NCBI RefSeq assembly: GCF_013122565.1
Contig: NZ_CP053258.1
Length of the DNA: 64,000 nt
Direction: 5' to 3' (one strand)
Origin: Escherichia coli
GTDB lineage: Bacteria; Pseudomonadota; Gammaproteobacteria; Enterobacterales; Enterobacteriaceae
Shown: piece by piece, positions 1 through 48,684 of the stretch
How positions within the stretch are numbered: position 1 is the first letter of the stretch
Layout of the letters: every line of letters starts with the position of its first letter
The notes under the pieces: model-generated
The model's input: only the letters and a program-made list of their open reading frames with translations
Told to the model about the DNA's origin: nothing
The model's database searches: none
Position numbers and translations under genes: made by a program

Positions 1-2
1 CG

Positions 3-707
3 CAAGGGCGCACGCTGATCCTCGGCGGCACCGGACCAATGGGACTGTTGGCGATTGATTATGCGCTGCATGGACCAGTTAACCCGTCGCTGCTCGTCAT
101 TACCGATACCGACAACGACAAATTGAGTTATGCGCGCAAGTACTATCCATCAGAACCGCAAACACTGATTCATTATCTCAATGCCGCCGATGCAGCATTT
201 GGTACGTTAATGGCACTGAGTGGCGGTCACGGCTTCGATGATATTTTCGTCTTTGTGCCTAATGAAGGACTGGTGACTCTCGCCTCTTCCTTGCTGGCGA
301 CAGATGGTTGCCTGAATTTCTTCGCCGGACCGCAGGATAAACATTTCAGCGCGCCAATTAATTTCTACGATGTGCATTATGCATTTACCCACTACGTGGG
401 CACGTCAGGCGGCAATACCGACGACATGCGCGCGGCGGTCAAACTGATCGAAGAGAAAAAAGTGCAGGCCGCAAAAGTGGTAACACATATTCTTGGGCTG
501 AATGCCGCGGGCGAAACCACGCTTGAATTGCCTGCCGTCGGCGGCGGCAAAAAGCTGGTGTATACCGGGAAATACCTGCCGCTGACGTCACTCACGCAGA
601 TTCAGGATCAAGCACTGGCGGCGATTCTGGCGCGTCATCAGGGGATCTGGTCCGGTGAGGCGGAGCAATACCTGCTCGCCCATGCAGAAGCAATTTCCCA
701 TGATTAA
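3..707 (+). CDS. Zn-dependent medium-chain dehydrogenase family protein, 3' portion only (5' end outside window); possibly a SorE-like sorbose-1-phosphate reductase
   Basis: Frame is open from nt 3 (..QGRTLILGGTGPMGLLAIDYAL..) to the stop at 705-707, with no start codon needed inside the window. GGTGPMG is a GxGxxG Rossmann motif as in the cofactor domain of MDR dehydrogenases. The SorE assignment rests on remembered gene neighbourhood (sor operon next to pepE in some E. coli), not on sequence identity. Confidence 0.55.
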   Translation, partial: QGRTLILGGTGPMGLLAIDYALHGPVNPSLLVITDTDNDKLSYARKYYPSEPQTLIHYLNAADAAFGTLMALSGGHGFDDIFVFVPNEGLVTLASSLLATDGCLNFFAGPQDKHFSAPINFYDVHYAFTHYVGTSGGNTDDMRAAVKLIEEKKVQAAKVVTHILGLNAAGETTLELPAVGGGKKLVYTGKYLPLTSLTQIQDQALAAILARHQGIWSGEAEQYLLAHAEAISHD

Positions 708-867
708 TCGCGCTACTTAACTCTGCATGTCGCTGGCTGGTCGCCGCGGCAACTTCGCGACCTGATGTGCGGCTGATTGCAGAAGCGGCACAATGTGCAC
801 GAGAAGGATAAAAAACATCAGCGCCTTAAGGGGCGCTCAAATTGGTAGCAAAGTGCACATTGTTTAT

Positions 868-967
868 GCCGGATGCGGAATGAAGCCTTATTCGGTCTAC
901 ATAATTTTGAAAATTCAATATATTGCAGTTATCTGGTAGGCCTGGTAAGCGTAGCGCATCAGGCAAT
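868..967. repeat. Pair of inverted REP-like palindromic units (BIME-like) between the dehydrogenase gene and pepE
   Basis: 868-900 tgccggatgcggaatgaagccttattcggtctac and 936-967 gtaggcctggtaagcgtagcgcatcaggca resemble the REP consensus (GCCGGATGCG..CTTATCCGGCCTAC) in opposite orientations. Confidence 0.5.
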
Positions 968-1088
968 GCTGTGTTTGTCATCAGTCTCAGCGCCCGGTGC
1001 AATACGTGACATCGTGAGCCATGTCAGTAAGTGGTTAAATTCGCAGTGGTAGCATTCCTTCCGTGATTTCTTGCTAACCGGAGAAGTA

Positions 1089-1778
1089 ATGGAACTGCTT
1101 TTATTGAGTAACTCGACGCTGCCGGGTAAAGCCTGGCTGGAACATGCACTGCCGCTAATTGCTGAACAGTTGCAGGGTCGCCGCTCAGCGGTGTTTATCC
1201 CTTTCGCTGGCGTAACGCAGACCTGGGATGATTACACAGAGAAAACGGCTGCGGTTCTCGCTCCGCTGGGTGTTTCTGTCACCGGTATTCATAGCGTTGT
1301 CGATCCCGTTGCCGCGATTGAAAATGCTGAGATCGTGATTGTCGGCGGCGGGAATACTTTCCAGTTGCTGAAACAGTGCCGCGAGCGCGGGCTGCTGGCA
1401 CCAATTACTGACGTGGTTAAACGTGGCGCACTGTATATTGGTTGGAGCGCAGGCGCTAACCTTGCTTGCCCAACCATTCGTACCACCAACGATATGCCGA
1501 TTGTCGATCCGCAAGGTTTCGATGCGCTGAATCTGTTCCCGCTGCAAATCAACCCGCACTTCACCAACGCGCTGCCGGAAGGCCATAAAGGTGAAACCCG
1601 TGAACAGCGTATTCGCGAACTGCTGGTCGTCGCGCCAGAACTCACAATTATTGGTCTACCGGAAGGTAACTGGATCACAGTGAGTAAAGGTCACGCAACG
1701 CTGGGTGGCCCGAACACCACTTATGTGTTTAAGGCTGGTGAAGAAGCGGTTCCGCTGGAAGCGGGTCACCGTTTTTAA
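1089..1778 (+). CDS. pepE: Peptidase E (alpha-aspartyl dipeptidase)
   Basis: ORF 1071-1778; translation from the internal ATG at 1089 ([29 protein letters not shown]...) matches remembered PepE; 229 aa. Confidence 0.9.
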
Positions 1779-1784
1779 ATGAAT

Positions 1785-1855
1785 TGCCGGATGCATGATC
1801 CGGCATCTTGTTCATAGTGCCTGATGCGACGCTTTACGCGTCTTATCAGGCCTAC
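1785..1855. repeat. Hairpin (gccggat-gcatg-atccggc) followed by a REP unit in the convergent pepE/yjbB spacer; likely bidirectional terminator region
   Basis: 1785-1805 tgccggatgcatgatccggca is an inverted repeat; 1819-1855 gcctgatgcgacgctttacgcgtcttatcaggcctac fits the REP consensus. Confidence 0.5.
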
Positions 1856-1867
1856 AGGGTCACGGTA

Positions 1868-3499
1868 TTAATACTCGTCCCGTCCTTCATCTTCATCCGG
1901 CTGTTCCAGCACACTGTAAGCCACCGAACAAAACAGCGAGTTCAGACGCTGCATATCTCCCAGTAAGCCTAAATGTAGCGAACTGGTTTCAATGCTCTGC
2001 ACGTTTTGCTGATGCAGGCGATCGACGTGGGCGTGGGAATAGCGGCGATTAAGAATGCGAAAGCGATGCTTGCTGCGGCGCAAACGACGGGCGCTGGTAA
2101 CATCACCAGAGAAGAAAACCGACATTGCCAGTTTTAAATTACTGAGCAATTGCTCATAGAGCGCATCCAGTTCCTTCAAGCCATCAAGCGAAAATGCCCG
2201 CCGTGCTGCCAGCGATTTATCGGCAATTTCGCTCCCCATGCGCTCGACGATATCGGAGGCCTGTTCAAGGTTGAGCGACATTTCGATGATCTCCGCCCAG
2301 CGGCGCGACTCTTCCTCCGCCAGCTCTTCTTTTGGCATCCGCGCCAGATACAGCTTAATGGCGGTATAGAGAACGTTGATATCATCTGCCAGTTTACGCA
2401 GCTCTTTCTCCTGCCGTGGCTCGCCGTGCATCACTTTATTCAGCCCTTCCATCATCTGTTCCATGGCGTCGCCAATGCGCAGGGTTTCGCGCGCGGCGTT
2501 CGCCAGAGCAAGCGTGGGCGTATCCAGCGCGCTGACATCCAGATGTTTGGGCCGTAGCTGGGTATCCAGTTCCGGTTCATCGCGAATAATCGTTTTGCAA
2601 AACCGTGCCATCGGGTCAACAAATGGCAGCATGACCAGGCAACGTACAAGGTTGTAGAAGACGTGGAAATAGATCACCAGTTCCGCTTTTGGCAATGACA
2701 ACTTCCCCATTGTCTCTGCCAGCAAATGGACAAACGGCAGGATAATCAGGCTACCCACCAGCTTAAACAGCAAACTACCCAGCGCGACACGGCGGGCTGC
2801 GGCATTGGCGGCACTGTTGTTGAGCATCGCCAGCAGGCCGGAACCGAGGTTAGCACCAATCACCAGACAGAGCGCCACGGGGAAGGAGATAATGCCTGCG
2901 GCGGTCAGAGTCGCAGTCAGCAGTACAGCAGCAAGGCTGGAGTAGCTGATAATGGCGAACATCGCGCCAATCAGCGCATCCAGCAGAATATCGCCGGTCA
3001 GCGAGGCAAAGATCACCTGAACGCCGTTTGCCTGGGTGATCGGCGTTACGGCCTGCACAATCAACTCCAGCGCCAGCAAAATCAGCCCAAGACCAATACC
3101 GACGCGGCCCAGTTGCCCGGCGCGTGACTGTTTGCGTCCGAGGAAAAAAATCACGCCGATAAAAATAAGTAACGGTGACAGCCAGGATAAGTCGAAGGTG
3201 AGAATACGCGCCATTAGCGCCGTCCCGACATCTGCCCCCAGCACAATGACCAGAGCCGGTGCGAGGGCTACCAGATCCTGAGCGACGAACGAGGTCACCA
3301 GCATGGTGGTGGCATTACTGCTCTGTACCAGTGCGGTAACGCCGATCCCCGCGCAAAAGGCGAGCGGCTTTTTTTCGACGCTCCGGCTAAGGACAGTACG
3401 CAAACGCGCGCCGAAGACGCGCATTACGCCGGTTCGAACAATATGAGTCCCCCAGACCAGCAGGGCGACGGCAGAAAGCAGGTGAAGCAGCGTTAACAC
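1868..3499 (-). CDS. yjbB: Na+/phosphate cotransporter-family membrane protein YjbB
   Basis: 543-aa ORF, hydrophobic multi-helix translation; position between pepE and metH as in K-12. Confidence 0.85.
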   Translation of the reverse strand: MLTLLHLLSAVALLVWGTHIVRTGVMRVFGARLRTVLSRSVEKKPLAFCAGIGVTALVQSSNATTMLVTSFVAQDLVALAPALVIVLGADVGTALMARILTFDLSWLSPLLIFIGVIFFLGRKQSRAGQLGRVGIGLGLILLALELIVQAVTPITQANGVQVIFASLTGDILLDALIGAMFAIISYSSLAAVLLTATLTAAGIISFPVALCLVIGANLGSGLLAMLNNSAANAAARRVALGSLLFKLVGSLIILPFVHLLAETMGKLSLPKAELVIYFHVFYNLVRCLVMLPFVDPMARFCKTIIRDEPELDTQLRPKHLDVSALDTPTLALANAARETLRIGDAMEQMMEGLNKVMHGEPRQEKELRKLADDINVLYTAIKLYLARMPKEELAEEESRRWAEIIEMSLNLEQASDIVERMGSEIADKSLAARRAFSLDGLKELDALYEQLLSNLKLAMSVFFSGDVTSARRLRRSKHRFRILNRRYSHAHVDRLHQQNVQSIETSSLHLGLLGDMQRLNSLFCSVAYSVLEQPDEDEGRDEY

Positions 3500-3718
3500 G
3501 AGTTCAGGTTCTCCTTATCGTTATATGTTCCTGAAGCAATTGAATGACCAAAGGACCGGAAACACGCTGACTGGCATCTTTACTGTGCCTTTTGACATTC
3601 GTTTTTCCGGCTAAGATTATTCCAGCCTGTTTCCAGTATAAGTGTTTCATATTAATAAAGAGACAGGGCACTCATTGAGCGCCCTGTTTGTTGTAAGGAA
3701 AAGTGACAGATTTGTGAA

Positions 3719-7402
<3,684 letters not shown>

Positions 7403-7564
7403 ACTTGCTCCCGACACGCTCAACCCAGATTTAATAAAAATTCAACAAACCATACTGGCATAAACGCATCTGTGGTAAAAGCAACCACTACCCAACATGA
7501 GATTTGTTCAACATTAACTCATCGGATCAGTTCAGCAACTATTGCATTAGCTAACAATAAAAAT

Positions 7565-7579
7565 GAAAATGATTTCCAC
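7565..7579 (+). promoter_or_regulatory. Candidate IclR autoregulatory operator
   Basis: gaaaatgatttccac is a near-palindrome resembling the IclR box, immediately upstream of the iclR start. Confidence 0.4.
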
Positions 7580-7601
7580 GATACAGAAAAAGGAGACTGT
7601 C

Positions 7602-8426
7602 ATGGTCGCACCCATTCCCGCGAAACGCGGCAGAAAACCCGCCGTTGCCACCGCACCAGCGACTGGACAGGTTCAGTCTTTAACGCGTGGCCTGAAATTA
7701 CTGGAGTGGATTGCCGAATCCAATGGCAGTGTGGCACTCACGGAACTGGCGCAACAAGCCGGGTTACCCAATTCCACGACCCACCGCCTGCTAACCACGA
7801 TGCAACAGCAGGGTTTCGTGCGTCAGGTCGGCGAACTGGGACATTGGGCAATCGGCGCACATGCCTTTATGGTCGGCAGCAGCTTTCTCCAGAGCCGTAA
7901 TTTGTTAGCAATTGTTCACCCTATCCTGCGCAATTTAATGGAAGAGTCTGGCGAAACGGTCAATATGGCGGTGCTTGATCAAAGCGATCACGAAGCGATT
8001 ATTATCGACCAGGTACAGTGTACGCATCTGATGCGAATGTCCGCGCCTATCGGCGGTAAATTGCCGATGCACGCTTCCGGTGCGGGTAAAGCCTTTTTAG
8101 CCCAACTGAGCGAAGAACAGGTGACGAAGCTGCTGCACCGCAAAGGGTTACATGCCTATACCCACGCAACGCTGGTGTCTCCTGTGCATTTAAAAGAAGA
8201 TCTCGCCCAAACGCGCAAACGGGGTTATTCATTTGACGATGAGGAACATGCGCTGGGGCTACGTTGCCTTGCAGCGTGTATTTTCGATGAGCACCGTGAA
8301 CCGTTTGCCGCAATTTCTATTTCCGGACCGATTTCACGTATTACCGATGACCGCGTGACCGAGTTTGGCGCGATGGTGATTAAAGCGGCGAAGGAAGTGA
8401 CGCTGGCCTATGGCGGGATGCGGTGA
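7602..8426 (+). CDS. iclR: Glyoxylate-shunt transcriptional repressor IclR
   Basis: ORF 7563-8426; internal start MVAPIPAKRGRKPAVATAPATGQVQSLTRGLKLLEW matches IclR; 274 aa. Confidence 0.95.
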   Translation: MVAPIPAKRGRKPAVATAPATGQVQSLTRGLKLLEWIAESNGSVALTELAQQAGLPNSTTHRLLTTMQQQGFVRQVGELGHWAIGAHAFMVGSSFLQSRNLLAIVHPILRNLMEESGETVNMAVLDQSDHEAIIIDQVQCTHLMRMSAPIGGKLPMHASGAGKAFLAQLSEEQVTKLLHRKGLHAYTHATLVSPVHLKEDLAQTRKRGYSFDDEEHALGLRCLAACIFDEHREPFAAISISGPISRITDDRVTEFGAMVIKAAKEVTLAYGGMR

Positions 8427-8442
8427 CATTTTCGCTTCTGAT

Positions 8443-10167
<1,725 letters not shown>

Positions 10168-10195
10168 TTAGCGCCCTCATCAAGAGCAAAGAATT

Positions 10196-10239
10196 GCCGG
10201 ATGCGGCGTGAACGCCTTATCCGGCCTACAGTCAGCAAC
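10196..10239 (-). repeat. REP element in the aceA-aceK intercistronic region
   Basis: gccggatgcggcgtgaacgccttatccggcctac is a near-consensus REP; a REP in this spacer is a classic feature of the ace operon. Confidence 0.8.
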
Positions 10240-10251
10240 GGTTGTTGTTGC

Positions 10252-11556
10252 TTAGAACTGCGATTCTTCGGTGGAGCCAGTTAGCGCGGTAACTGACGAC
10301 GTACCGCCCTGAATAATGGTCGTCACTTTATCGAAATAACCTGTACCCACTTCCTGCTGGTGAGATACGAAGGTATAGCCATCTTTCGCAGCGGCAAATT
10401 CCGGCTGCTGCACTTTCTCAACATAGTGCTTCATACCCTCGCCCTGGGCATAGGCGTTTGCCAGGTCGAACATGTTGAACCACATGCTGTGGATACCTGC
10501 CAGGGTGATGAACTGGAACTTGTAGCCCATATCCGACAGCTGCTGCTGGAAGCTGGCAATAGTTTTGTCGTCGAGGTTTTTCTGCCAGTTGAACGACGGC
10601 GAGCAGTTATAAGCCAGCAGTTTGCCTGGATATTTCGCGTGGATAGCTTGTGCAAAGCGACGCGCCAGTTCCAGATCCGGCGTGGAGGTTTCACACCATA
10701 CCAGGTCAGCATATGGCGCATACGCCAGGCCACGGCTGATCGCTTGCTCAATGCCCGCATGAGTACGGAAGAAGCCTTCACTGGTACGCTCGCCGGTAAT
10801 AAATTCGCTGTCATACGGGTCGCAATCGGAGGTGATCAGATCCGCCGCATCGGCATCGGTACGAGCAACCAGCAGAGTCGGAACGCCCGTCACGTCAGCC
10901 GCCAGACGCGCCGCAACCAGTTTCTGAATAGCTTCCTGAGTTGGCACCAAAACTTTGCCGCCCATGTGACCGCATTTCTTCACTGACGCCAGCTGATCTT
11001 CGAAGTGAACTGCCGCTGCACCGGCTTCAATCATCGCTTTCATCAGTTCAAAGGCATTCAGGACACCGCCAAAACCGGCTTCCGCATCGGCAACGATCGG
11101 CAGGAAGTAATCGACATAGCGCGGATCGCCCGGCTCAATACCCGCGGACCATTGGATCTGATCCGCACGGCGGAAGGTGTTGTTGATCCGCTCCACCACA
11201 GCTGGCACCGAGTTTGCCGGATAGAGCGACTGATCCGGATACATGCTGGCCGCCAGGTTAGCGTCCGCCGCTACCTGCCATCCCGACAGATAGACCGCTT
11301 CAATACCCGCTTTCGCCTGTTGCAGCGCCTGACCGCCAGTCAGTGCACCGAGGCTGTTGATGTAGCCTTTTTTCGACTCGCCATGCAGCAGACGCCACAT
11401 TTTCGCCGCGCCCAGTTGCGCCAGCGTGCATTCAGGATTGACTGAACCGCGTAATTTCACCACATCTTCCGCGCTGTATGGGCGAGTAATGCCTTCCCAA
11501 CGCGGTTGAGTCCACTCTTTCTGTAATTCTTCAATTTGTTGTGTACGGGTTTTCAT
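10252..11556 (-). CDS. aceA: Isocitrate lyase
   Basis: ORF 10252-11571; internal start [32 protein letters not shown] gives 434 aa. Confidence 0.95.
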
Positions 11557-11585
11557 GTGCAGATGCTCCATAGTTATGTGGTGGT

Positions 11586-13187
11586 TTACGCTAACAGGCG
11601 GTAGCCTGGCAGGGTCAGGAAATCAATTAACTCATCGGAAGTGGTGATCTGTTCCATCAAGCGTGCGGCATCGTCAAAACGCCCCTGGGAGAAACGTTCT
11701 TCGCCCAGTTCGCTGGCAATGACTTTCATCTCTTCGCCCAGCATCTGGCGGAACAAGGCTTTGGTCACCGGTTTGCCATTGCTCAACGTTTTTTGATGAT
11801 GGATCCACTGCCAGATTGAGGTACGGGAAATTTCAGCCGTCGCCGCATCTTCCATCAGGCCATAAATCGGCACGCAGCCGTTGCCGGAGATCCACGCTTC
11901 AATGTACTGCACAGCCACGCGAATGTTGGCGCGCATACCTTCTTCGGTGCGTTCACCATCACAAGGTGCCAGCAGCTGATCGGCAGTAATCGGCGCGTCT
12001 TGTTCGCGCAATACTTCAAGCTGATTTTTACGGGAGCCGAGAATGTCGTTGAATACCGCCATTGCCGTGTCCGCAAGGCCTGGGTGAGCGATCCATGTGC
12101 CATCGTGACCGTTATTGGCTTCCAGCGCTTTATCCGCTTTTACTTTGTTGAGCACCTGGTTATTACGCTCTTCATCTTTGCTCGGAATAAACGCCGCCAT
12201 GCCGCCCATCGCAAAAGCACCGCGTTTATGGCAGGTTTTAATCAACAGGCGTGAGTAAGCATTCAGGAAGGGTTTATCCATCGTCACTGCCTGTCTGTCT
12301 GGCAGGACGCGATCGGGATAGTTTTTCAACGTTTTGATATAACTGAAGATGTAATCCCAACGACCGCAGTTCAGACCAACAATATGGTCACGCAGCGCGT
12401 GAATGATTTCATCCATCTGGAACACGGCGGGCAGCGTTTCAATCAGCAACGTCGCCTTGATGGTGCCGCGCGGCAGATTAAAGCGATCTTCTGCATAGCT
12501 GAAGACTTCACTCCACCAGGCCGCTTCCTGCCAGGACTGGGTTTTCGGCAGATAGAAATAGGGACCGCTGCCCTTTGCCAACAGTGCCTGATAGTTGTGG
12601 AAGAAATAGAGCGCAAAATCAAACAGGCTACCGGGGATTGCCTCACCACGCCAGGTGACATGTTTTTCCGGCAAGTGCAGACCGCGTACCCGACAAATCA
12701 AAACCGCTGGATTGGGCTTGAGCTGATAAATTTTGCCTGCTTCATTCGTGTAACTGATGGTGCCGTTAACCGCATCGCGCAGGTTAATTTGCCCGTCGAT
12801 CACTTTGTTCCAGTCTGGTGCCAGTGAATCTTCGAAATCGGCCATAAAGACTTTCACATTGGCGTTCAGTGCGTTGATCACCATCTTGCGCTCAACCGGG
12901 CCAGTTATCTCGACTCGACGATCTTGTAAGTCCGCAGGAATACCACGAATTTTCCAGCCTGCATCACGAATGGAAGCTGTTTCCGAAATAAAATCAGGCA
13001 ACGTTCCGTTATCGATATCCTGCTGCTGCTGAATGCGCGCTGCCAGAAGTTTATTGCGTTGTGGCGTAAAATGCGTCACCAGCTCAGTCAGAAATTCTAC
13101 CGCTTCGGCAGTAAGAATTTGCTTCTCCTGCTCGCCATACGGCCTTGTGAAAGCCAGTTCATCGGTTGTTGTTGCCTGTTCAGTCAT
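11586..13187 (-). CDS. aceB: Malate synthase A
   Basis: ORF 11586-13205; internal start [32 protein letters not shown] gives 533 aa. Confidence 0.95.
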
Positions 13188-13287
13188 CGTGCAGCTCCTC
13201 GTCATGGATCCGAAAACTTCCCCACTGTGAACGAAGGATCGTTGTGCGCTTTTCGTTCAGCACAACTAAGACTACTCATTTAAAATG

Positions 13288-13313
13288 CAAAATCAAAAAC
13301 AATTTCCATTTTA
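13288..13313 (-). promoter_or_regulatory. IclR operator in the aceB promoter region
   Basis: Minus-strand sequence aaaatggaaattgtttttgattttg matches the remembered IclR box of the aceBAK promoter. Confidence 0.6.
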
Positions 13314-13385
13314 ATTAAAAATACTTGATAACTTATTGATAACAATATAAATAAAATTTATTCACCTACTGAGGTGCGTTTCGGA

Positions 13386-13412
13386 AATAAAAAAGGCACC
13401 CGAAGGTGCCTG
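13386..13412 (-). terminator. Intrinsic terminator after metA
   Basis: Minus-strand aggcacc-ttcg-ggtgcct hairpin followed by a T-run. Confidence 0.6.
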
Positions 13413-13455
13413 AGGTAAGGTGCTGAATCGCTTAACGATCGACTATTACAGAAGA

Positions 13456-14385
13456 TTAATCCAGCGTTGGATTCATGTGCCGTAGATCGTATGGCGTGAT
13501 CTGGTAGACGTAATAGTTGAGCCAGTTGGTAAACAGCAAATTACCGTGACTACGCCAGCTCGCTCGCGGTTTGTTTTGCGGATCATTGTGCGGGAAATAG
13601 TTATACGGTACTTCCGGGTCTAGTCCGGCTTCCACATCGCGGAAATATTCTTGCGCCAGCGTTTGCGCATCATATTCGGGATGGCCCGTCACAAAGGCAA
13701 TGCGCTTATCTTTGCTGGCAAACAGATATGCATCCCCTCCTTCCGTCTCTGCCAGAATTTCCAGATCGGTGTAATCACGAATCAACGCTGCCGGAAAGTC
13801 AGCATAGCGCGAATGCGGTGCCAGGAATGAATCATCAAAGCCACGCGTCAGAAGCGCATGAGGATGGAGAATATGATGCTCGTAAACGCCAGAGAGTTTG
13901 TCGGTGCGAGTTTGCTTAGGAATGCCGTAGAGGATATTGAGCGCGGCCTGTACCGCCCAGCAGACAAACAGCGTCGAGGTGACGTGATCTTTCGACCACT
14001 CCAGCACCTGTTTGATCTGCGGCCAGTAAGCGACATCATTAAACTCTACCAGGCCCAGCGGCGCACCAGTTACAATCAAACCGTCAAAGTTCTGATCCTG
14101 AATATCTTCAAAGTTACAGTAGAAGTTATTCAGATGCTCTGCGGGCGTGTTGCGCGACTCGCGGGAATCGATGCGCAACAGCTGAATATCGACCTGCAAA
14201 GGCGAGTTTGAAAGCAGGCGCAGAAATTGATTTTCAGTTTCAATCTTCTTCGGCATCAGGTTAAGGATAAGCACCTTTAGCGGACGAATTTCCTGACCAG
14301 ACGCACGAGAAGTTGTCATCACAAAGACGTTTTCTTCACGCAAGAAATTGACGGCGGGTAGCTCGTCCGGCACACGAATCGGCAT
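13456..14385 (-). CDS. metA: Homoserine O-succinyltransferase
   Basis: 309-aa [31 protein letters not shown]... Confidence 0.95.
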
Positions 14386-14415
14386 AACCTGATTACCTCA
14401 CTACATACGCTTATA

Positions 14416-14436
14416 CGTTTAGACATCCAGATAGCT
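14416..14436 (-). promoter_or_regulatory. Candidate MetJ boxes upstream of metA
   Basis: agacatcc/agatagct are tandem 8-mers loosely resembling the AGACGTCT met-box; metA is a known MetJ target. Confidence 0.3.
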
Positions 14437-14541
14437 GAAGATAACCAGAAAATTTGCCAATGTCGAGCCTGCATGTTGAAGGTGAGAAAGTTTCAAGGAA
14501 AAGACTACGTTAGAATATAAGAATGACTAAAAGGAGTGAAA

Positions 14542-14985
14542 ATGGTTATTAGTATTCGCCGCTCACGGTATGAGGAAGGGGAGGAACTCGTTGCGATTTG
14601 GTGTCGATCTGTCGATGCCACCCACGATTTTTTATCAGCAGAGTATCGGGCCGAGCTGGAAGAGCTGGTTCGTTCCTTTCTGCCGGAAGCACCGTTGTGG
14701 GTCGCGGTTAATGAACGGGATCAGCTGGTTGGGTTTATGTTGTTAAGTGGGCAGCATATGGATGCGCTGTTTATCGATCCTGATGTGCGCGGCTGCGGCG
14801 TGGGTCGGATGCTGGTGGAGCATGCGCTCTCGATGGCACCGGAACTGACAACCAACGTTAATGAGCAAAATGAGCAGGCGGTTGGGTTCTATAAGAAGGT
14901 GGGTTTTAAGGTTACTGGACGCTCTGAGGTGGACGATTTGGGGAAACCGTATCCGTTGCTGAATCTGGCGTATGTGGGGGAATAA
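14542..14985 (+). CDS. yjaB: GNAT-family N-acetyltransferase YjaB
   Basis: ORF 14536-14985; internal start MVISIRRSRYEEGEELVAIW gives 147 aa; acetyltransferase-like motif region (..LFIDPDVRGCGVGRMLVEHAL..) present. Confidence 0.85.
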   Translation: MVISIRRSRYEEGEELVAIWCRSVDATHDFLSAEYRAELEELVRSFLPEAPLWVAVNERDQLVGFMLLSGQHMDALFIDPDVRGCGVGRMLVEHALSMAPELTTNVNEQNEQAVGFYKKVGFKVTGRSEVDDLGKPYPLLNLAYVGE

Positions 14986-15012
14986 GCTGCCCCCTATCGT
15001 GCTATCGTGCCT

Positions 15013-15051
15013 GCGTAAGCTGGATAAGACGCGCCAGCGTCGCATCCGGCA
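15013..15051 (-). repeat. REP-like element between yjaB and the rrnE terminator
   Basis: Minus-strand tgccggatgcgacgctggcgcgtcttatccagcttacgc fits the REP pattern. Confidence 0.5.
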
Positions 15052-15065
15052 TTTTTTTCTGCGCC

Positions 15066-15098
15066 AATGCAAAAAGGCCATCCGTCAGGATGGCCTTT
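15066..15098 (-). terminator. rrnE operon intrinsic terminator
   Basis: aggccatcc-gtca-ggatggcct hairpin with a T-run on the minus strand, immediately after the 5S gene. Confidence 0.7.
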
Positions 15099-23620: not shown

Positions 23621-24942
23621 CGCGACAGTTTTGCCAATAGCGTTTTGCGAGTGATCCCTAACTGACGGGCGGCTTCGGTTTTGTTGCCGCCCGTTTTCTC
23701 CAGCGCCGCCAGAATCACCTCTTTTTCCACTTCCACCAACGGCTGAATATCCTGACTTTGCCCCAGCGGGATCGGCGTACTGGCAATCGCCAGCGGCAGC
23801 TCGCGTTCGGAAATATATTCCCCAGTCAGCAGCACCACCGCCCGTTCCACCGCATTTTCCAGTTCACGAATATTTCCCGGCCAGTCGTAATGAATCAACA
23901 GATCCATCGCCTGGGGCGTAAAGCCTTTTACCGCCTTGCGATTACGTTCAGCAAAGCGCTGAAGAAAATGGCCAGCCAGCAGAGGAATATCTTCCCGCCG
24001 TTGCCGCAGCGACGGTACTTCAATCGCCACCACGTTCAGGCGATAGTAGAGATCCTGGCGAAAACGCCCGGCCTTTACCTCTGCGGCAAGATCGCGATGG
24101 GTCGCCGCAATCAGCCGGACATCAACCGAAATAGTCTGGTTGCTACCGACACGCTGAACTTCGCGTTCCTGAATCGCACGTAGCAGACGCACCTGCATCA
24201 TCGGCGAGATATCGCCAATTTCATCGAGAAACAGCGTGCCGCCGTCCGCCTCAACAAAGCGCCCTTCCCGGCGTTTATCGGCTCCAGTAAACGCCCCTTT
24301 TTCGTGACCGAACAATTCAGATTCCAGCAAGGATTCGTTGAGTGCCGCACAGTTGAGCGTTACCAGCGGTTTTTCGCTACGTGCGCTACTGGCGTGAATC
24401 GCCCTGGCGACCAGCTCTTTACCGGTGCCGGAATCGCCGTGGATCAGCACCGTGGCTTCCGATGGCGCGACGAGGGCGATTTCACTGAGCAGGTGTTGCA
24501 TCGCCGGGCTTTTACCGACCATACCGAACTGGCTGGCAGTCACCGCAGGTGTTTCAGCATCAATACTGTGCGTATGCGCGAGCGCCTTTTCCAGCGTCGC
24601 CTGTAGGTTATCGAAATCCAGCGGCTTGATGAGATAATCCAGCGCCCCAGTTTTCAGTGCCTCTACCGCCGTCTCGACGCTGGAGTACGCAGTCATAATC
24701 AGCACCGGAATTGCCGGGTTTAACGCTTTGATCTCTTTCAGCGTGGCGATGCCGTCCATCTCCGCCATTCGCACATCGCAAAGCACAAGATCAAAAACCT
24801 GTTCCCGCACCTGCTCCAGCGCCTGTCGCCCGCTGTTCGCCAGCGCGACGTTATAGCCCCAGCCGCGCAGTAAAGCCTGCAAAATAGTGCAGTGGCTAAT
24901 GTCATCATCCACCACCAGAATATCGATATTATCGTGCGTCAT
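23617..24942 (-). CDS. zraR: Sigma-54-dependent response regulator ZraR (HydG)
   Basis: 441-aa ORF with receiver domain, AAA+ sigma-54 activator motifs (GESGTGKE, GAFTGA) and C-terminal HTH. Confidence 0.9.
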
Positions 24943-26315
24943 CCTTGTGGGTCCTTACGCGTAATATTGACCGGAAGCCAGAGGGTGAACGTTGCGCCTT
25001 TTCCCTCCTGGCTTGCGACCTGAATTGTACCACCGTGTTGTTCAACAATATTATGCACGACCGCCAGCCCCAATCCGGTGCCTTCGGCTTTGGTGGTGAA
25101 GTACGGAGTGAAGATGGCTTCAAGCTGATCTGCCGCAATTCCCTTACCGCTGTCGGTAACGCTGATTTTCACGCCCGCGCCGCTTTCGCTGGCCGTCACG
25201 CTAATCACGCCATGCTGACCAATCGCCTGAATAGCATTGAGATAGAGATTCAACAGGACCTGAGTCAGCCTGTCCGGATCGGCCTGAATTTCCGGTAATG
25301 TGTCGTTGTCGGTAAAGCGTAACTGGATCTCCCGGCTGTTTGCATCCTGGCTTACCAGCTGTAATGAGTGGTTAATCAGCGTGTTGAGATCCACCGCCTG
25401 CAAAGCCAGATGCGTTGGCTTAACCAGTTCCAGCAACTCGCTTACCACGCGGTTTAAACGGTCGGCCTCTTTCGCCATCACCTGCGCCAGTTGATGCGCT
25501 TCTCCCCCTGCAGGCGCGCGCTCGGCAAAGTATTTCGCCAGTCCTTTAATCGAGGAAAGTGGGTTACGGATTTCGTGGGCAACGCCTGCCGCAAGATGCC
25601 CCAGCGCCACCAGCTTCTCTTTGCGCTTCATTTCATCTTGTAGAAGCTGGCGCGAGCGCAGATAGCGGCGATACCAGAAGAATGACAATACGCTTGCCAG
25701 CAAGACCGTCGCCAGGGCGAAGAGGATAATCAGGGTGTTTCTCTGCTCACGATCTTCGGCACTCACAATATTACTGGCGTCGAAAGCGATGAAAATTGCT
25801 TGTGGTGTCGCGGCATACTGCTGCATATGGCGCATCCGGTGCATTCCAGCAGCAAACATCGGTTGAAACTGGCGATAAATTTCCAGAACAGGCTCGCCGT
25901 CTGCGCTATCGATCCGCCGCCATGCTTCTTCATCTCCCGGATGTAACTGCTGCATTTCCTGCGGGGAATAAAGCTGTTTTCCCACCATGCCGGAGTTGCT
26001 ATGCATCACGATTGTTCCTTGTTCATCCGTGACCGCAAACCAACGTACTCCAGGCTGCCCGGCCATTTCTTCCAGTAAGGCCTGCTGCTGCGCATGATGC
26101 ATGCGCATCCCCATGCCGACGCGCGAGCCGGATTCAAGAGCGCGAATAAGTACACTGCCTTTTTCCAGCAGCGTTTGTCTGGCGGCGGCAGTCTCGCGCC
26201 CATAATCGCGAATCACCGTCACCGCAAACAACCCCACCAGCCCAACAATGACCACGGGGAGGATCGCGCTTAACCATTTAGCTAAGGAGTCTTTAGAACG
26301 TTGCATAAAACGCAT
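24939..26315 (-). CDS. zraS: Sensor histidine kinase ZraS (HydH)
   Basis: 458-aa ORF with two hydrophobic segments and a histidine-kinase core (HEIRNPL H-box); overlaps zraR by 4 nt. Confidence 0.9.
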   Translation of the reverse strand: MRFMQRSKDSLAKWLSAILPVVIVGLVGLFAVTVIRDYGRETAAARQTLLEKGSVLIRALESGSRVGMGMRMHHAQQQALLEEMAGQPGVRWFAVTDEQGTIVMHSNSGMVGKQLYSPQEMQQLHPGDEEAWRRIDSADGEPVLEIYRQFQPMFAAGMHRMRHMQQYAATPQAIFIAFDASNIVSAEDREQRNTLIILFALATVLLASVLSFFWYRRYLRSRQLLQDEMKRKEKLVALGHLAAGVAHEIRNPLSSIKGLAKYFAERAPAGGEAHQLAQVMAKEADRLNRVVSELLELVKPTHLALQAVDLNTLINHSLQLVSQDANSREIQLRFTDNDTLPEIQADPDRLTQVLLNLYLNAIQAIGQHGVISVTASESGAGVKISVTDSGKGIAADQLEAIFTPYFTTKAEGTGLGLAVVHNIVEQHGGTIQVASQEGKGATFTLWLPVNITRKDPQG

Positions 26316-29451: not shown

Positions 29452-29607
29452 AATCGCTCCTTAGAGCCTGGTTCAACAGGCGTAATTGTTGAAGGCAGTT
29501 TGAGGCCGGACAGCGCGGAAAAACCGGAGCGTACACGTAGTACGTGAGGATTTTGAGCACTGCCCGGCCTCAAAATGGCAAATAAAATAGCCTGATGGAC
29601 CAGGCTC

Positions 29608-38815: not shown

Positions 38816-41800
38816 TTACTCGTTATCAGAACCGCCCAGACCTGCGTTCAGCAGTTCTGCCAGGCTGGCAGATGCGTCTTCTGCAGTCACCTGCGGTGCA
38901 GCCGGAGCTTCACCCGCAGCACGGCGACGCATACGATCCTGGTGGTACGCGTAACCGGTACCTGCAGGGATCAGACGACCCACGATAACGTTCTCTTTCA
39001 GGCCGCGCAGTTCGTCGCGTTTGCCCGCAACGGCTGCTTCGGTCAGCACGCGAGTGGTCTCCTGGAACGATGCCGCGGAGATGAAGGACTCGGTTGCCAG
39101 AGACGCTTTGGTGATACCCAGCAGATCGCGGGAGTAAGTTGCACCCACTTTGCCGTTCGCTTCCAGTTCGCGGTTTGCGATCTTGACGCGAGAGTATTCA
39201 ACCTGTTCGCCTTCCAGGAAGTCGGAGCTGCCCGCGTTAACGATGGTAGCTTTACGCAGCATCTGACGAACGATAACTTCGATGTGTTTATCGTTAATCT
39301 TAACGCCCTGCAGACGGTATACGTCCTGTACTTCGTTAACGATGTAACGAGTAACAGCATGAACACCACGCAGACGCAGAATGTCGTGCGGCGCTTCCGG
39401 ACCGTCGGAAATTACGTCACCACGTTCTACACGTTCACCTTCGAACACGTTGAGCTGACGCCATTTCGGAATCATCTCTTCGTACGGATCGCTACCGTCT
39501 ACCGGGGTGATAACCAGACGACGTTTACCTTTGGTTTCTTTACCGAAGGAAACGATACCGCTGATTTCAGCCAGGATTGCCGGCTCTTTCGGACGACGTG
39601 CTTCGAACAGGTCCGCAACGCGCGGCAGACCACCGGTGATGTCCTTGGTACCGCCGGATTCCTGCGGAATACGCGCCAGGGTGTCACCAGAGCTGATCTG
39701 TACGCCATCTTCCAGCTGAACAATCGCTTTACCCGGCAGGAAGTACTGCGCAGGCATATCGGTACCTGGGATCAGAACGTCGTTACCCTGAGCATCAACG
39801 ATTTTCAGTGCCGGACGCAGATCTTTACCACCTGCGGTACGTTCTGCGGAATCCAGAACCACCAGCGAAGACAGACCGGTCAGTTCGTCGGTCTGACGCG
39901 TAATGGTCTGGCCGTCGATCATGTCAGTAAAGCGTACAAAACCGCTTACTTCGGTGATAACCGGCATGGTGTGCGGGTCCCAGTTTGCAACGGTTTCGCC
40001 GCCAGCAACCTGTTCGCCATCGCCTTTTGCCAGTACCGCACCGTAAGGTACTTTGTAGCTTTCTTTGGTACGACCGAATTCGTCGATCAGTTTCAGTTCG
40101 GTGTTACGGGAAGTGATAACCAGTTTACCGCTGGAGTTCACAACCGACTTCACGTTGCTGAGCTTGATGCTACCTTTGTTTTTCACCTGGATGCTGGATT
40201 CAGCAGCCGCACGTGATGCCGCACCACCGATGTGGAACGTACGCATGGTCAGCTGTGTACCCGGTTCACCGATGGACTGTGCCGCGATAACACCGATTGC
40301 TTCACCCTTGTTGATGATGTGGCCACGCGCCAGGTCACGACCGTAGCAGTGCGCACATACACCAAAGTCGGTGTCACAAGATACAACAGAACGTACTTTA
40401 ACCGCGTCGACAGAGTTCTCTTCCAGCAGGTCACACCACTGTTCGTGCAGCAGCGTGTTGCGCGGAACGAGGATATCAGCAGTACCCGGCTTCAGAACGT
40501 CTTCAGCAGTTACACGACCCAGTACGCGATCGCGCAACGGCTCTTTAACATCACCACCTTCGATAACCGGAGTCATCATGATACCTTCATGGGTACCACA
40601 ATCGTCTTCGGTAACCACCAGGTCCTGCGCCACGTCAACCAGACGACGAGTCAGGTAACCGGAGTTCGCAGTTTTCAGTGCGGTATCCGCCAGACCTTTA
40701 CGAGCACCGTGGGTGGAGATGAAGTACTGGAGTACGTTCAGACCTTCACGGAAGTTCGCGGTGATTGGCGTTTCGATGATGGAGCCATCCGGCTTCGCCA
40801 TCAGACCACGCATACCAGCAAGCTGACGAATCTGTGCCGCAGAACCACGCGCACCGGAGTCGGCCATCATGTAGATGCTGTTGAAGGAAACCTGCTTCTC
40901 TTCCTGACCGTCACGGTTAATCACGGTTTCAGTTTGCAGGTTATCCATCATCGCTTTGGATACACGATCGTTCGCCGCAGCCCAGATATCGATAACTTTG
41001 TTGTAGCGTTCGCCCGCAGTTACCAGACCAGACTGGAACTGCTCCTGAATTTCCGCAACTTCTGCTTCTGCCTCGGAGATGATTTCGTGTTTCTTCTCCG
41101 GGATGACCATGTCATCGATACCAACAGATGCACCAGAACGCGCTGCATATGCAAAGCCGGTGTACATGATCTGGTCCGCAAAAATAACGGTCGGTTTCAG
41201 ACCGAGAATGCGGTAGCAGGTGTTCAGCATTTTGGAGATTGCTTTTTTACCCAGCGCCTGGTTGACGATGGAGTAAGGCAGACCTTTCGGTACAATCATC
41301 CACAGAATGGCACGGCCAACAGTCGTGTCTTTCAGGCTGGTTTTCGCTACTAATTCACCGTTAGCATCTTTTTCATACTCGGTGATACGCACTTTAACGC
41401 GCGCATGCAGAGAAGCCAGACCAGAGCGATACAGACGTTCTGCTTCTTTCGGGCCAGTCAGCACCATGCCTTCGCCTTTGGCGTTAACACAGTCACGGGT
41501 CATGTAGTACAGACCCAGTACAACGTCCTGAGACGGAACGATGATTGGTTCGCCGTTCGCCGGGGACAGGATGTTGTTGGTAGACATCATCAGCGCACGC
41601 GCTTCCAGCTGGGCTTCCAGCGTCAGCGGTACGTGAACAGCCATCTGGTCACCATCGAAGTCGGCGTTATATGCCGCACAAACCAGCGGGTGCAGCTGGA
41701 TAGCTTTACCTTCGATCAGTACCGGTTCAAATGCCTGGATACCCAGACGGTGCAGAGTCGGTGCACGGTTCAGCAGTACCGGGTGTTCGCGGATAACTTC

Positions 41801-43039
41801 GTCCAGGATATCCCAAACGACAGCTTCTTCGCGCTCAACCATTTTCTTCGCAGCTTTAATGGTGGTAGCAAGACCACGCAGTTCCAGCTTGCCGTAGATG
41901 AACGGTTTGAACAGCTCCAGCGCCATTTTCTTCGGCAGACCGCACTGATGCAGACGCAGGTATGGACCCACGGTGATTACAGAACGACCGGAGTAGTCAA
42001 CACGCTTACCGAGCAGGTTCTGACGGAAACGACCCTGTTTACCTTTGATCATGTCGGCCAAAGATTTCAGAGGACGCTTGTTAGAACCGGTGATCGCACG
42101 ACCGCGACGACCGTTATCCAGCAGGGCGTCTACCGCTTCCTGCAGCATACGTTTTTCGTTACGTACGATGATATCCGGCGCAGCCAGATCCAGCAGACGT
42201 TTCAGACGGTTGTTACGGTTAATGACGCGACGATACAGATCGTTCAGGTCAGAAGTCGCGAAACGACCACCATCCAGCGGAACCAGCGGACGCAGATCTG
42301 GCGGCAGTACCGGCAGAACGGTCAGGATCATCCACTCTGGTTTGTTACCAGACTGAACGAACGCTTCCAGTAGTTTGATACGCTTGGTCAGCTTTTTACG
42401 CTTAGTTTCGGAGTTGGTTTCGTTCAGCTCTTCACGCAGCTGTTCGCACTCTTGCTCCAGATCCATGCTCTTCAGCAGAGCCTGGATTGCTTCCGCACCC
42501 ATCTTCGCGTCGAATTCGTCACCGAACTCTTCCAGCGCGTCCAGATACTGCTCTTCAGTCAGGATCTGCTGACGTTCCAGGTTGGTCATACCGCCTTCAA
42601 TAACCACATAGGATTCGAAGTACAGTACGCGTTCGATATCGCGCAGCGGCATATCAAGCAGCAGGCCGATACGGGACGGCAGCGATTTCAGGAACCAGAT
42701 GTGCGCAGTCGGGGAAGCCAGTTCGATGTGGCCCATACGCTCACGGCGTACTTTAGTCTGGGTCACTTCAACGCCGCACTTCTCACAGATAACGCCACGG
42801 TGTTTCAGGCGCTTGTACTTACCGCACAGGCACTCGTAATCTTTTACCGGCCCAAAGATACGGGCGCAGAAAAGGCCGTCACGTTCTGGTTTGAACGTAC
42901 GGTAGTTGATGGTTTCCGGCTTTTTAACTTCACCGAAAGACCATGAACGGATCATGTCTGGCGAAGCCAGAGCAATTTTGATCGCATCAAACTCTTCGGT
43001 TTTAGTCTGCGCTTTCAGAAACTTTAATAAATCTTTCAC
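38816..43039 (-). CDS. rpoC: RNA polymerase beta' subunit
   Basis: 1407-aa [52 protein letters not shown]... Confidence 0.98.
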
Positions 43040-43115: not shown

Positions 43116-46100
43116 TTACTCGTCTTCCAGTTCGATGTTGATACCCAGCGAACGAATCTCTTTCAACAATACGTTGAAGGATTCTGGCATGCCCGGCTCC
43201 ATCTGATGGTTGCCGTCCACGATGTTCTTATACATCTTGGTACGACCGTTCACGTCATCAGACTTAACGGTGAGCATTTCCTGCAGGGTGTATGCTGCGC
43301 CGTATGCTTCCAGCGCCCACACTTCCATCTCCCCGAAACGCTGACCACCGAACTGTGCCTTACCACCCAGCGGCTGCTGAGTAACCAGGCTGTAAGAACC
43401 GGTGGAACGCGCGTGCATCTTGTCGTCGACCAGGTGGTTCAGTTTCAGCATGTACATGTAACCAACGGTTACCGGACGCTCGAACTGTTCACCAGTGCGG
43501 CCGTCGTACAGGCGGATCTGACCGGAAGTCGGCAGGTCGCCAAGTTTCAGCAGCTCTTTAATTTCTGCTTCTTTCGCACCGTCGAACACCGGCGTTGCGA
43601 TTGGCATACCTTTGCGCAGGTTTTCAGCCAGACGCATAACTTCTTCATCGCTGAAGGTACTCAGGTCAACTTTCTGACGAACGTCAGCGCCCAGATCGTA
43701 CGCACGCTGGATGAATTCGCGCAGTTTCGCGACTTCTTGCTGCTGTTTCAGCATGGCGTTGATCTTGTCGCCGATACCTTTCGCAGCCATACCCAGGTGG
43801 GTTTCGAGGATCTGACCGATGTTCATACGAGACGGTACGCCCAGCGGGTTCAGTACGATGTCTACCGGCGTACCGTTTTCATCGTAAGGCATATCTTCGA
43901 TCGGGTTGATCTTAGAAATTACACCCTTGTTACCGTGACGACCTGCCATCTTGTCACCAGGCTGGATACGGCGTTTAACCGCCAGATATACCTTAACAAT
44001 CTTCAGCACGCCCGGTGCCAGATCGTCGCCCTGGGTGATTTTGCGGCGTTTCGCTTCGAGTTTCTTCTCGAACTCGTGTTTCAGTTCGTCATACTGCTCA
44101 GCCAGCTGTTCCAGCTGATTTTGTTTCTCTTCGTCGGTCAGGCCCAGCTCCAGCCAGCGATCGCGCGGCAGTTTGTCGAGCTTCTCAGCTTCAACGCCAC
44201 CGGCTACCAGCACAGCACGGATACGGCTGAACAGACCCGCTTCGAGGATCTGCAGTTCTTCAGACAGGTCTTTCTTCGCCTGTTTGAGCTGCATTTCTTC
44301 GATTTCCAGCGCACGTTTGTCTTTTTCTACGCCATCGCGAGTAAAGACCTGAACGTCGATAACCGTACCGGATACACCGTTTGGTACGCGCAGAGAAGAG
44401 TCTTTAACGTCAGAGGCTTTCTCACCGAAGATCGCACGCAGCAGTTTTTCTTCTGGGGTCAGCTGAGTTTCACCTTTCGGCGTTACCTTACCAACCAGAA
44501 TGTCGCCACCGGTCACTTCCGCACCAATGTAAACGATACCGGATTCATCCAGTTTGGAGAGCGCAGCTTCACCCACGTTCGGGATGTCAGCGGTGATCTC
44601 TTCCGGCCCCAGCTTGGTGTCACGGGACACACACGCCAGTTCCTGAATGTGGATGGTGGTGAAACGGTCTTCCTGAACAACACGCTCGGATACGAGGATG
44701 GAGTCTTCGAAGTTGTAACCATTCCACGGCATGAACGCTACGCGCATGTTCTGACCAAGCGCCAGTTCACCGAGGTCGGTGGACGGACCGTCTGCCAGCA
44801 CGTCGCCACGTTCAACCGGTTCACCCAGAGACACACACGGCATCTGGTTGATACAGGTGTTCTGGTTAGAACGGGTGTATTTGGTCAGGTTGTAGATGTC
44901 GATACCTGCTTCACCCGGATACATCTCGTCTTCGTTAACTTTGATAACGATACGGGAAGCATCCACGTACTGAACGACACCACCACGTTTAGCTACCGCA
45001 GTTACACCGGAGTCAACGGCAACAGCACGTTCCATACCAGTACCAACCAGCGGCTTATCAGCGCGCAGAGTCGGAACGGCCTGACGTTGCATGTTCGCAC
45101 CCATCAATGCACGGTTGGCGTCATCGTGTTCCAGGAACGGGATCAGGGACGCACCGACGGATACCACCTGCTGGGTGGATACGTCCATGTAGTCAACCTG
45201 GTCGCGGCTGAACAAGCTGGATTCGCCTTTGCTACGGCAAGTTACCAGGTCTTCTACGAAGTGGCCTTCTTCATCCAGGTTGGAGTTCGCCTGGGCGATA
45301 ACGTAGTTGCCTTCTTCGATAGCAGACAGGTAGTGAATTTCGTCAGTTACAACACCGTCGGTCACTTTACGATACGGAGTCTCAAGGAAGCCGTATTCGT
45401 TAGTCTGTGCGTACACGGACAGGGAGTTGATCAGACCGATGTTCGGACCTTCAGGGGTTTCGATTGGACATACGCGACCGTAGTGAGTCGGGTGTACGTC
45501 TCGAACTTCGAAGCCTGCACGTTCACGGGTCAGACCGCCTGGGCCGAGTGCGGAGATACGACGTTTGTGCGTAATCTCAGACAGCGGGTTGTTCTGGTCC
45601 ATAAACTGAGACAGCTGGCTGGAACCGAAGAACTCTTTCACTGCTGCGGAAATCGGCTTGGCGTTGATCATATCCTGAGGCATCAGGGTATCCAGATCGC
45701 CCAGAGACAAACGCTCTTTCACCGCACGCTCTACACGTACCAGACCAACGCGGAACTGGTTTTCCGCCATTTCGCCAACGGAACGGATACGACGGTTGCC
45801 GAGGTGGTCGATATCATCGACTTCGCCTTTACCGTTACGGATATCGATGAGCTTTTTCATAACATCAATGATGTCGTCTTTGCTCAGGATACCGGAACCT
45901 TCGATTTCTTCGCGCAGCAGAGAACGGTTGAACTTCATACGACCAACCGCAGACAGGTCATAACGGTCTTCGGAGAAGAACAGGTTCTCGAACAGGCTTT
46001 CAGCTGCTTCACGAGTCGGCGGCTCGCCAGGGCGCATCATGCGGTAGATTTCTACCAGTGCGCTCAGACGGTCGTTAGTTGGGTCGACACGTAAGGTTTC

Positions 46101-47144
46101 AGAGATATACGGGCCGTGATCCAGGTCGTTGGTGAACAGCGTTTCGATACGCTTGTGACCAGACTGGCTCAGCTTAGCCAGCAGATCCAGGCTCAGCTCC
46201 ATGTTCGCTGCGCAGATCAGCTCGCCGGTAGACTCATCAATATAGTCTTTAGCAACCACTTTACCTGCGATGTACTCAACCGGGACTTCGATCAGTTTGA
46301 CGTCGTCTTTTTCCAGCTGGCGAATGTGGCGCGCAGTGATACGGCGGCCTTTTTCTACGTACACTTTACCGTTAGCTTCGATGTCAAAAGATGCGGTTTC
46401 ACCACGCAGGCGTTCCGGCACCAGTTCCATCTGCAGCTTGTTATCACGGATTTCAAAGATAACTTTTTCAAAGAACAGGTCGAGGATCTGCTCTGTGGTG
46501 TAGTTCAGGGCGCGCAGAATGATGGTCGCAGGCAGTTTACGGCGACGGTCGATACGTACGAACAGGTTGTCCTTCGGATCGAATTCGAAGTCCAGCCAGG
46601 AACCACGGTAAGGGATGATGCGCGCGTTATACAGCACTTTACCCGAAGAGTGGGTTTTACCTTTGTCGGAGTCAAAGAAGACGCCCGGACTACGGTGCAG
46701 CTGGGAAACGATAACACGCTCAGTACCGTTGATAACAAAGGTACCGTTGTCTGTCATGAGCGGAATTTCGCCCATGTAGACTTCTTGTTCTTTAATGTCT
46801 TTTACGGTGCCTTCCGGCGCTTCGCGCTCATAGATCACCAGACGCAGTTTAACGCGCAGCGGTGCGGAATAGGTCACGCCACGGATTTGACATTCCTGGA
46901 CGTCAAACACCGGTTCGCCAAGGCGGTAGCTGACGTATTGCAGCTCGGAATTACCGCTGTAGCTCTGAATCGGGAATACGGAACGGAAAGCAGCTTCCAG
47001 ACCATACTGCCCTTCAGGATCTTGCTCGATAAATTTCTGAAACGAGTCAAGCTGGATAGAAAGGAGATAAGGTACATCCAGAACTTGTGGACGTTTACCA
47101 AAATCCTTACGAATACGTTTTTTCTCGGTATAGGAGTAAACCAT
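43116..47144 (-). CDS. rpoB: RNA polymerase beta subunit
   Basis: ORF 43116-47177; canonical start [35 protein letters not shown] is 11 codons inside the ORF-track start; 1342 aa. Confidence 0.98.
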
Positions 47145-47389
47145 AGGGTTCCTCAGCTCGCTGACAAGTCGACCCATCTGTCCATTGAGCGGACAGTTTG
47201 TGCAACACTATTTTGTTGACCGGAAAATGGAACACTTTCCGCAATGCCTGTTGCTATCACGCTTAAACCATTTCATTGCGATTTACACAGAACGGGCGTC
47301 CTGTCGCAGTATATTAAGTCGTCGATAGAAACAAGCATTGAAAGGCACAGCAGTAGTCAAACAGTGTGAAACGCTACTGGCGCCTTACA

Positions 47390-47422
47390 GCGCAAAAAGG
47401 CTGGTGACCAAAAAGTCACCAG
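47390..47422 (-). terminator. rplL-rpoB intercistronic attenuator (partial terminator)
   Basis: Minus-strand ctggtgac-ttttt-ggtcaccag hairpin followed by a T-run, in the 286-bp rplL-rpoB spacer where the rpoBC attenuator is known to lie. Confidence 0.7.
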
Positions 47423-47463
47423 CCATCAGCCTGATTTCTCAGGCTGCAACCGGAAGGGTTGGC

Positions 47464-48393: not shown

Positions 48394-48684
48394 TAGCTTT
48401 GCTCCTGGATGTTTGCCAGAGAAAATCTCTGGAACTCACTTCACTCCTCCAAACGGAGAGAGCGTCTTAATTACGGTGAGCAGAAACAAGCCAGAATATA
48501 AAAGAATAATCTTAGCGTTCTGTCACCGTCTACGCAGGGGATTAAGTTTCTTGCGAAACTCCTGCGGTCTTCGACGGAGGCCTGGATAGGCCAGGCTCCA
48601 ACGAACAAATCTTTTTAGCTGCTAACTTTCGTTAGCATACGTGGGGGTAAGATTGTAGACAAAATCACCGCCCACGTAAAGGCA

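Follow-up and report, generated by a model that had tools for sequence, protein, structure and literature searches.

Does the rpoB gene in this stretch of Escherichia coli DNA encode a rifampicin-sensitive RNA polymerase, or does it carry a resistance genotype? The rifampicin pocket of the beta subunit adjoins the RNA exit path. Resistance is usually caused by substitutions lining this pocket, in clusters I–III and at V146, most often at D516, H526 and S531, and the substitutions of clusters I–III lower the binding of the drug. The pocket lies near the active centre, and rifampicin blocks the growing RNA at a length of 2–3 nt (PMC5303731). The original prediction quoted a peptide of 32 residues of RpoB and held that cluster I was wild type. 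We analysed the whole stretch of 64 kb in which the gene lies (hereafter the window). On the evidence of its sequence, the window almost certainly contains an ordinary, intact chromosomal E. coli rpoB with the amino-acid sequence of K-12, and we expect the encoded enzyme to be sensitive to rifampicin.

We placed the coding sequence of rpoB, the gene of the RNA polymerase beta subunit, at 43116..47144 on the minus strand (1342 codons plus stop), using the open reading frame, the NCBIfam model TIGR02013 (the rpoB equivalog) and the identity with K-12 and E24377A. The open reading frame as listed spans 43116..47177 on the same strand and includes the quoted peptide as an exact match. The chance of such a match is (1/20)^32 per position, and it cannot be a coincidence in 64 kb. 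The longest reading frame starts at an ATG at 47177, 11 codons upstream of the one we selected. We rejected this start, because the ATG at 47144 fits the annotated start and length of the K-12 gene. The latter ATG has GAGCTGAGGAACCCT just before it and opens with the conserved N-terminus MVYSYTEKK, giving a protein of 1342 aa. This protein matched TIGR02013 with a score of 1990.8 bits (curated cut-off of 801.15 bits), with positions 1–1238 of the model aligned to residues 8–1339. When the protein was compared with the sequences of the PDB, the best match was the 1342-aa E. coli beta chain common to 353 entries (3004.6 bits). At the nucleotide level, megablast searches with rpoB gave matches in 5,420 of the 5,426 complete RefSeq genomes of E. 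coli, with a top identity of 99.8%.

The quoted peptide corresponds to residues 507–538 and was mapped, by exact string match and computation of the coordinates, to 45531..45626 on the minus strand. The approximate interval originally proposed for it (45530–45640) was right within a few bases at its low end, but its high end was 14 bases too far. The interval as given, which had no strand, is out of frame, and its translation on the minus strand therefore made no sense. We used the cluster limits described for E. coli, i.e., residues 507–533 for cluster I, 563–572 for cluster II and 687 for cluster III (PMC11084559, PMC5303731). Cluster I (45546..45626, minus strand) was identical to K-12 in DNA and in protein, with neither a nucleotide nor an amino-acid difference in codons 507–533, which agrees with the predicted wild type. 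The three residues that were said to be unchanged are indeed encoded as in K-12, and their codon coordinates were computed on the minus strand: Asp516 by GAC (45597..45599), His526 by CAC (45567..45569) and Ser531 by TCC (45552..45554). Comparison with K-12 showed that the other sites on this strand are also wild type. Cluster II (45429..45458) had zero differences, cluster III had the Arg687 codon CGT (45084..45086), and the codon of Val146 was GTT (46707..46709). We take position 146 to be the N-terminal rifampicin-resistance site.

The same residues set the protein of the window apart from RpoB mutants represented in the PDB. The mutants D516V (5UAH), H526Y (5UAQ) and S531L (5UAL) are otherwise the same protein and have single substitutions, whereas the window has Asp516, His526 and Ser531; the assignment of these entries follows Molodtsov et al. 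2017, as cited in PMC11364244. With the RpoB of the window as a query, the PDB sequence groups that include 5UAL, 5UAQ and 5UAH scored 3 to 4 bits below the E. coli sequence of the 353 entries.

Since every residue of the pocket is unchanged, the polymerase of the window should be drug-sensitive: rifampicin would bind the unaltered pocket of the beta subunit and stop the RNA from growing once it is two or three nucleotides long. A drug-sensitive polymerase is what established knowledge leads us to expect from this genotype. The wild-type genotype of rpoB concerns the target only, not the minimal inhibitory concentration (MIC) or resistance genes elsewhere in the genome. The outer membrane of E. 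coli cuts the uptake of rifampicin, and the MIC is therefore not fixed by rpoB alone. For wild-type E. coli, a rifampicin MIC of roughly 4–16 mg/L is expected. The alternative that fares best is that the strain is resistant by a mechanism that leaves the target intact, e.g., an Arr-type enzyme, efflux or reduced uptake, and that is encoded outside the window. Such mechanisms occur in Enterobacteriaceae, the 64 kb represent about 1.3% of an E. coli genome, and the rifamycin-modifying Arr ADP-ribosyltransferases are typically encoded in integrons or plasmids, which would lie outside the window. Yet, acquired rifamycin resistance genes are uncommon in E. coli overall, and none of the rifamycin-inactivating genes Arr, Rph, Rox and HelR was found within the 64-kb window. 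The window is collinear with K-12. It matches 42 proteins of K-12 (41 in full length, plus BtuB, which is cut by the end of the window), all of them as intact orthologues. Beyond these, the genes long enough to be called include only a fragment of sorE, its 3’ end (L-sorbose 1-phosphate reductase; 1–707, plus strand). We thus regard resistance by such a mechanism as unlikely and retain the reading of a sensitive target.

A second alternative is a resistance genotype that a short motif would miss, with the target changed not in cluster I but in cluster II, in cluster III, at V146 or by an in-frame insertion or deletion. The original prediction was based on the inspection of residues 507–538 only, and resistance sites are known at 563–572 and 687 (PMC11084559, PMC5303731). 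We compared the entire gene, base by base, with those of K-12 MG1655 (NC_000913.3, 4181245–4185273) and E24377A. The gene has 4029 nt in the window and in both references, and the alignment is gapless, with no in-frame insertion or deletion. There are 14 nucleotide differences relative to K-12 and 10 relative to E24377A, all of them synonymous, and the protein is 100% identical to those of K-12 and E24377A (1342/1342 residues). This refutes an altered target outside cluster I, to which we give a very low probability. The predicted absence of a resistance genotype from the classical hotspot thus holds, with 0 amino-acid differences over the 1342 residues of RpoB. The prediction had named a misread substitution in clusters I–III as the observation that would contradict it, and the alignment with K-12 and E24377A revealed none.

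The differences from K-12 and from E24377A were absent from codons 507–533, 563–572, 687 and 146. The synonymous changes closest to the clusters, relative to K-12, were at codon 489 (CCA>CCT) and at codon 574 (TCT>TCC, window position 45423). The RefSeq protein WP_000263098.1 is the annotated RpoB of E24377A, Nissle 1917 and CFSAN004176, hence the RpoB of the window has the same sequence as in these strains and in K-12. The RpoB of K-12 MG1655 (b3987, NP_418414.1), whose sequence is that of WP_000263098.1, is an identical protein of 1342 residues and occupies the same position in the operon.

Resistance mutations in rpoB are often accompanied by compensatory changes in rpoC. The rpoC gene of the window (38816..43039, minus strand) encodes a beta’ subunit of 1407 aa that is identical to that of K-12, with 26 synonymous differences between the genes. 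The identity of 99.93% given by tblastn arises only from the GTG start codon being read as Val. RpoC being identical to that of K-12, there is no sign of compensatory changes.

The genomic context of rpoB is also that of K-12. The genes rplK-rplA-rplJ-rplL-rpoB-rpoC are all present, in this order and on the minus strand, and their proteins are 100% or nearly 100% identical to those of K-12. Upstream of rpoB we found tufB, secE, nusG, rplK, rplA, rplJ and rplL, and downstream rpoC, yjaZ and the thi operon. The order tufB-secE-nusG-rplKAJL-rpoBC-yjaZ-thi is the one found at 4.175–4.196 Mb in K-12, in reverse orientation. The spacers that flank rpoB have equal lengths in the window and in K-12 MG1655 (319 nt for rplL-rpoB and 76 nt for rpoB-rpoC), and differ by two and one substitutions, respectively, next to the 14 synonymous changes of the gene itself. 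A terminator-like hairpin is kept in the rplL-rpoB spacer (47399..47424, minus strand), with one base of the loop differing from K-12, and the Rfam family P26 matches within the same spacer (47398–47459). This hairpin corresponds to the partial attenuator that is already known to precede rpoB. The conserved spacer and hairpin give nothing to suggest a silent or secondary copy. Sequence identity, gene integrity and gene context are direct observations of this analysis. That the rpoB of the window is a non-functional or secondary copy, with the working gene elsewhere, has a negligible likelihood: a small number of the 5,420 genomes of E. coli match rpoB at several places (at most three per genome), and plasmids have matches at two places in the whole E. 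coli collection, but here the reading frame is intact, the differences from K-12 indicate purifying selection (14/14 synonymous), and the gene belongs to the canonical rplKAJL-rpoBC operon, whose leader and attenuator are conserved.

Differences from K-12 were also found among the neighbouring ribosomal protein genes and their spacers. RplL (L7/L12; 47464–47829, minus strand) has the change Ala110Ser relative to K-12, which is the sole amino-acid change in tufB-secE-nusG-rplKAJL-rpoBC-yjaZ. The rplA-rplJ spacer (48394–48684, minus strand) has 291 nt in the window versus 412, with 142 nt of the K-12 and E24377A sequences replaced by the 21 nt GCTAACGAAAGTTAGCAGCTA at about 48616–48636. The replacement starts inside the TATAAT element of a promoter-like site (TTGTCT-17-TATAAT). 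Of two promoter-like sites that overlap here, the stronger one is lost. The 21 nt could fold into a hairpin with a 6-bp stem and the loop GAAA. The replacement seemed notable at first, but the short spacer is present in 1,777 of the 5,426 complete E. coli genomes, including O157:H7, Nissle 1917 and ATCC 11775, and the leader region of rplJ (L10) is thus commonly dimorphic.

Other differences from K-12 were scattered along the window. The 3’ end of sorE had a weak match to ADH_zinc_N (31.0 bits), just under the Pfam cut-off of 31.8. Here, as in strain JNE151685, a sor operon is located past pepE, in the interval that separates this gene from rluF, whereas K-12 lacks the operon at this place. 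The hemE-nfi spacer (29452–29607) has 156 nt versus 9 nt in K-12, and its spacing is the same in CFSAN004176. The approximately 147 extra nucleotides are imperfectly palindromic, their ends being inverted repeats of 10 nt (AGAGCCTGGT and ACCAGGCTCT) with a repeated TAAG on the flanks, and look like a small repeat element of the MITE type. The sensor kinase ZraS (24939–26315, minus strand) has 458 aa and is 85% identical to the ZraS of K-12 (465 aa, 7 gap positions), and its neighbours ZraR and ZraP are 99.5–100% identical to those of K-12. The 458-aa form is also found in CFSAN004176, hence ZraS shows an allelic dimorphism. The most divergent nucleotide segment was aceK (8443–10167, minus strand), with 94.1% identity to K-12 versus 97.7–99.1% in its flanks. 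AceK has 574 aa versus 578 in K-12, and the 3’ end of its gene adjoins the site where arpA is missing.

As for the lineage of the host, it had no close match outside rpoB among the 5,426 complete RefSeq genomes of E. coli, a collection that excludes Shigella; the best identity was 97.8–98.8%. By segment, and away from the highly conserved genes, the best identity in these genomes was only 97.9% for positions 1–15000 of the window and 98.8% for 21000–43000. The gene arpA is missing between iclR and aceK (8427–8442), where a junction of about 16–18 nt is left, and yjaA is missing from the interval (14986–15092) that separates yjaB from the 5S rRNA gene in the rrnE-equivalent operon. Both arpA and yjaA are markers in the Clermont phylogroup PCR scheme. 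The gene espL4, encoding a type III effector of the ShET2/EspL2 family, is annotated in this region in the best-matching strains, but the window has no room for it. Searches of the GTDB species representatives gave no exact match for the pattern of the aceK/iclR junction, nor for a 41-mer of rpoB with two synonymous changes specific to the window. Exact copies of AceK and ZraS turned up in a single Logan assembly, SRR11451224, and one of the contigs that carry them matches the window over 4780 nt with 100% identity.

We considered, and rejected, a cryptic clade of Escherichia as the source of the window. In the thi-hemE segment, the window is 98.55% identical to K-12, and therefore closer to it than Nissle 1917 is (96.8%), which places the lineage inside the diversity of E. 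coli. Shigella was rejected as unlikely, given that IS elements and pseudogenes are both absent from the window with its 42 genes, and that the exact proteins occur in one sequencing run only. The window comes from an E. coli lineage that is rarely sampled. We propose tentatively that this lineage is a deep branch of the species, in which case RpoB and RpoC would be invariant in amino acids even there. The unusual host lineage does not affect the finding of a wild-type rpoB.

Nothing suggests a new mechanism related to rifampicin, and the importance of the wild-type result is very small. It can serve only as a negative entry when the resistance genotype is reported: rifampicin resistance through the target is absent, and so is a compensatory change in rpoC. 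Both rpoB and rpoC were also confirmed to be intact, with no frameshift and no amino-acid change relative to K-12. As a housekeeping gene, rpoB has a wild-type resistance region by default, which was already known.
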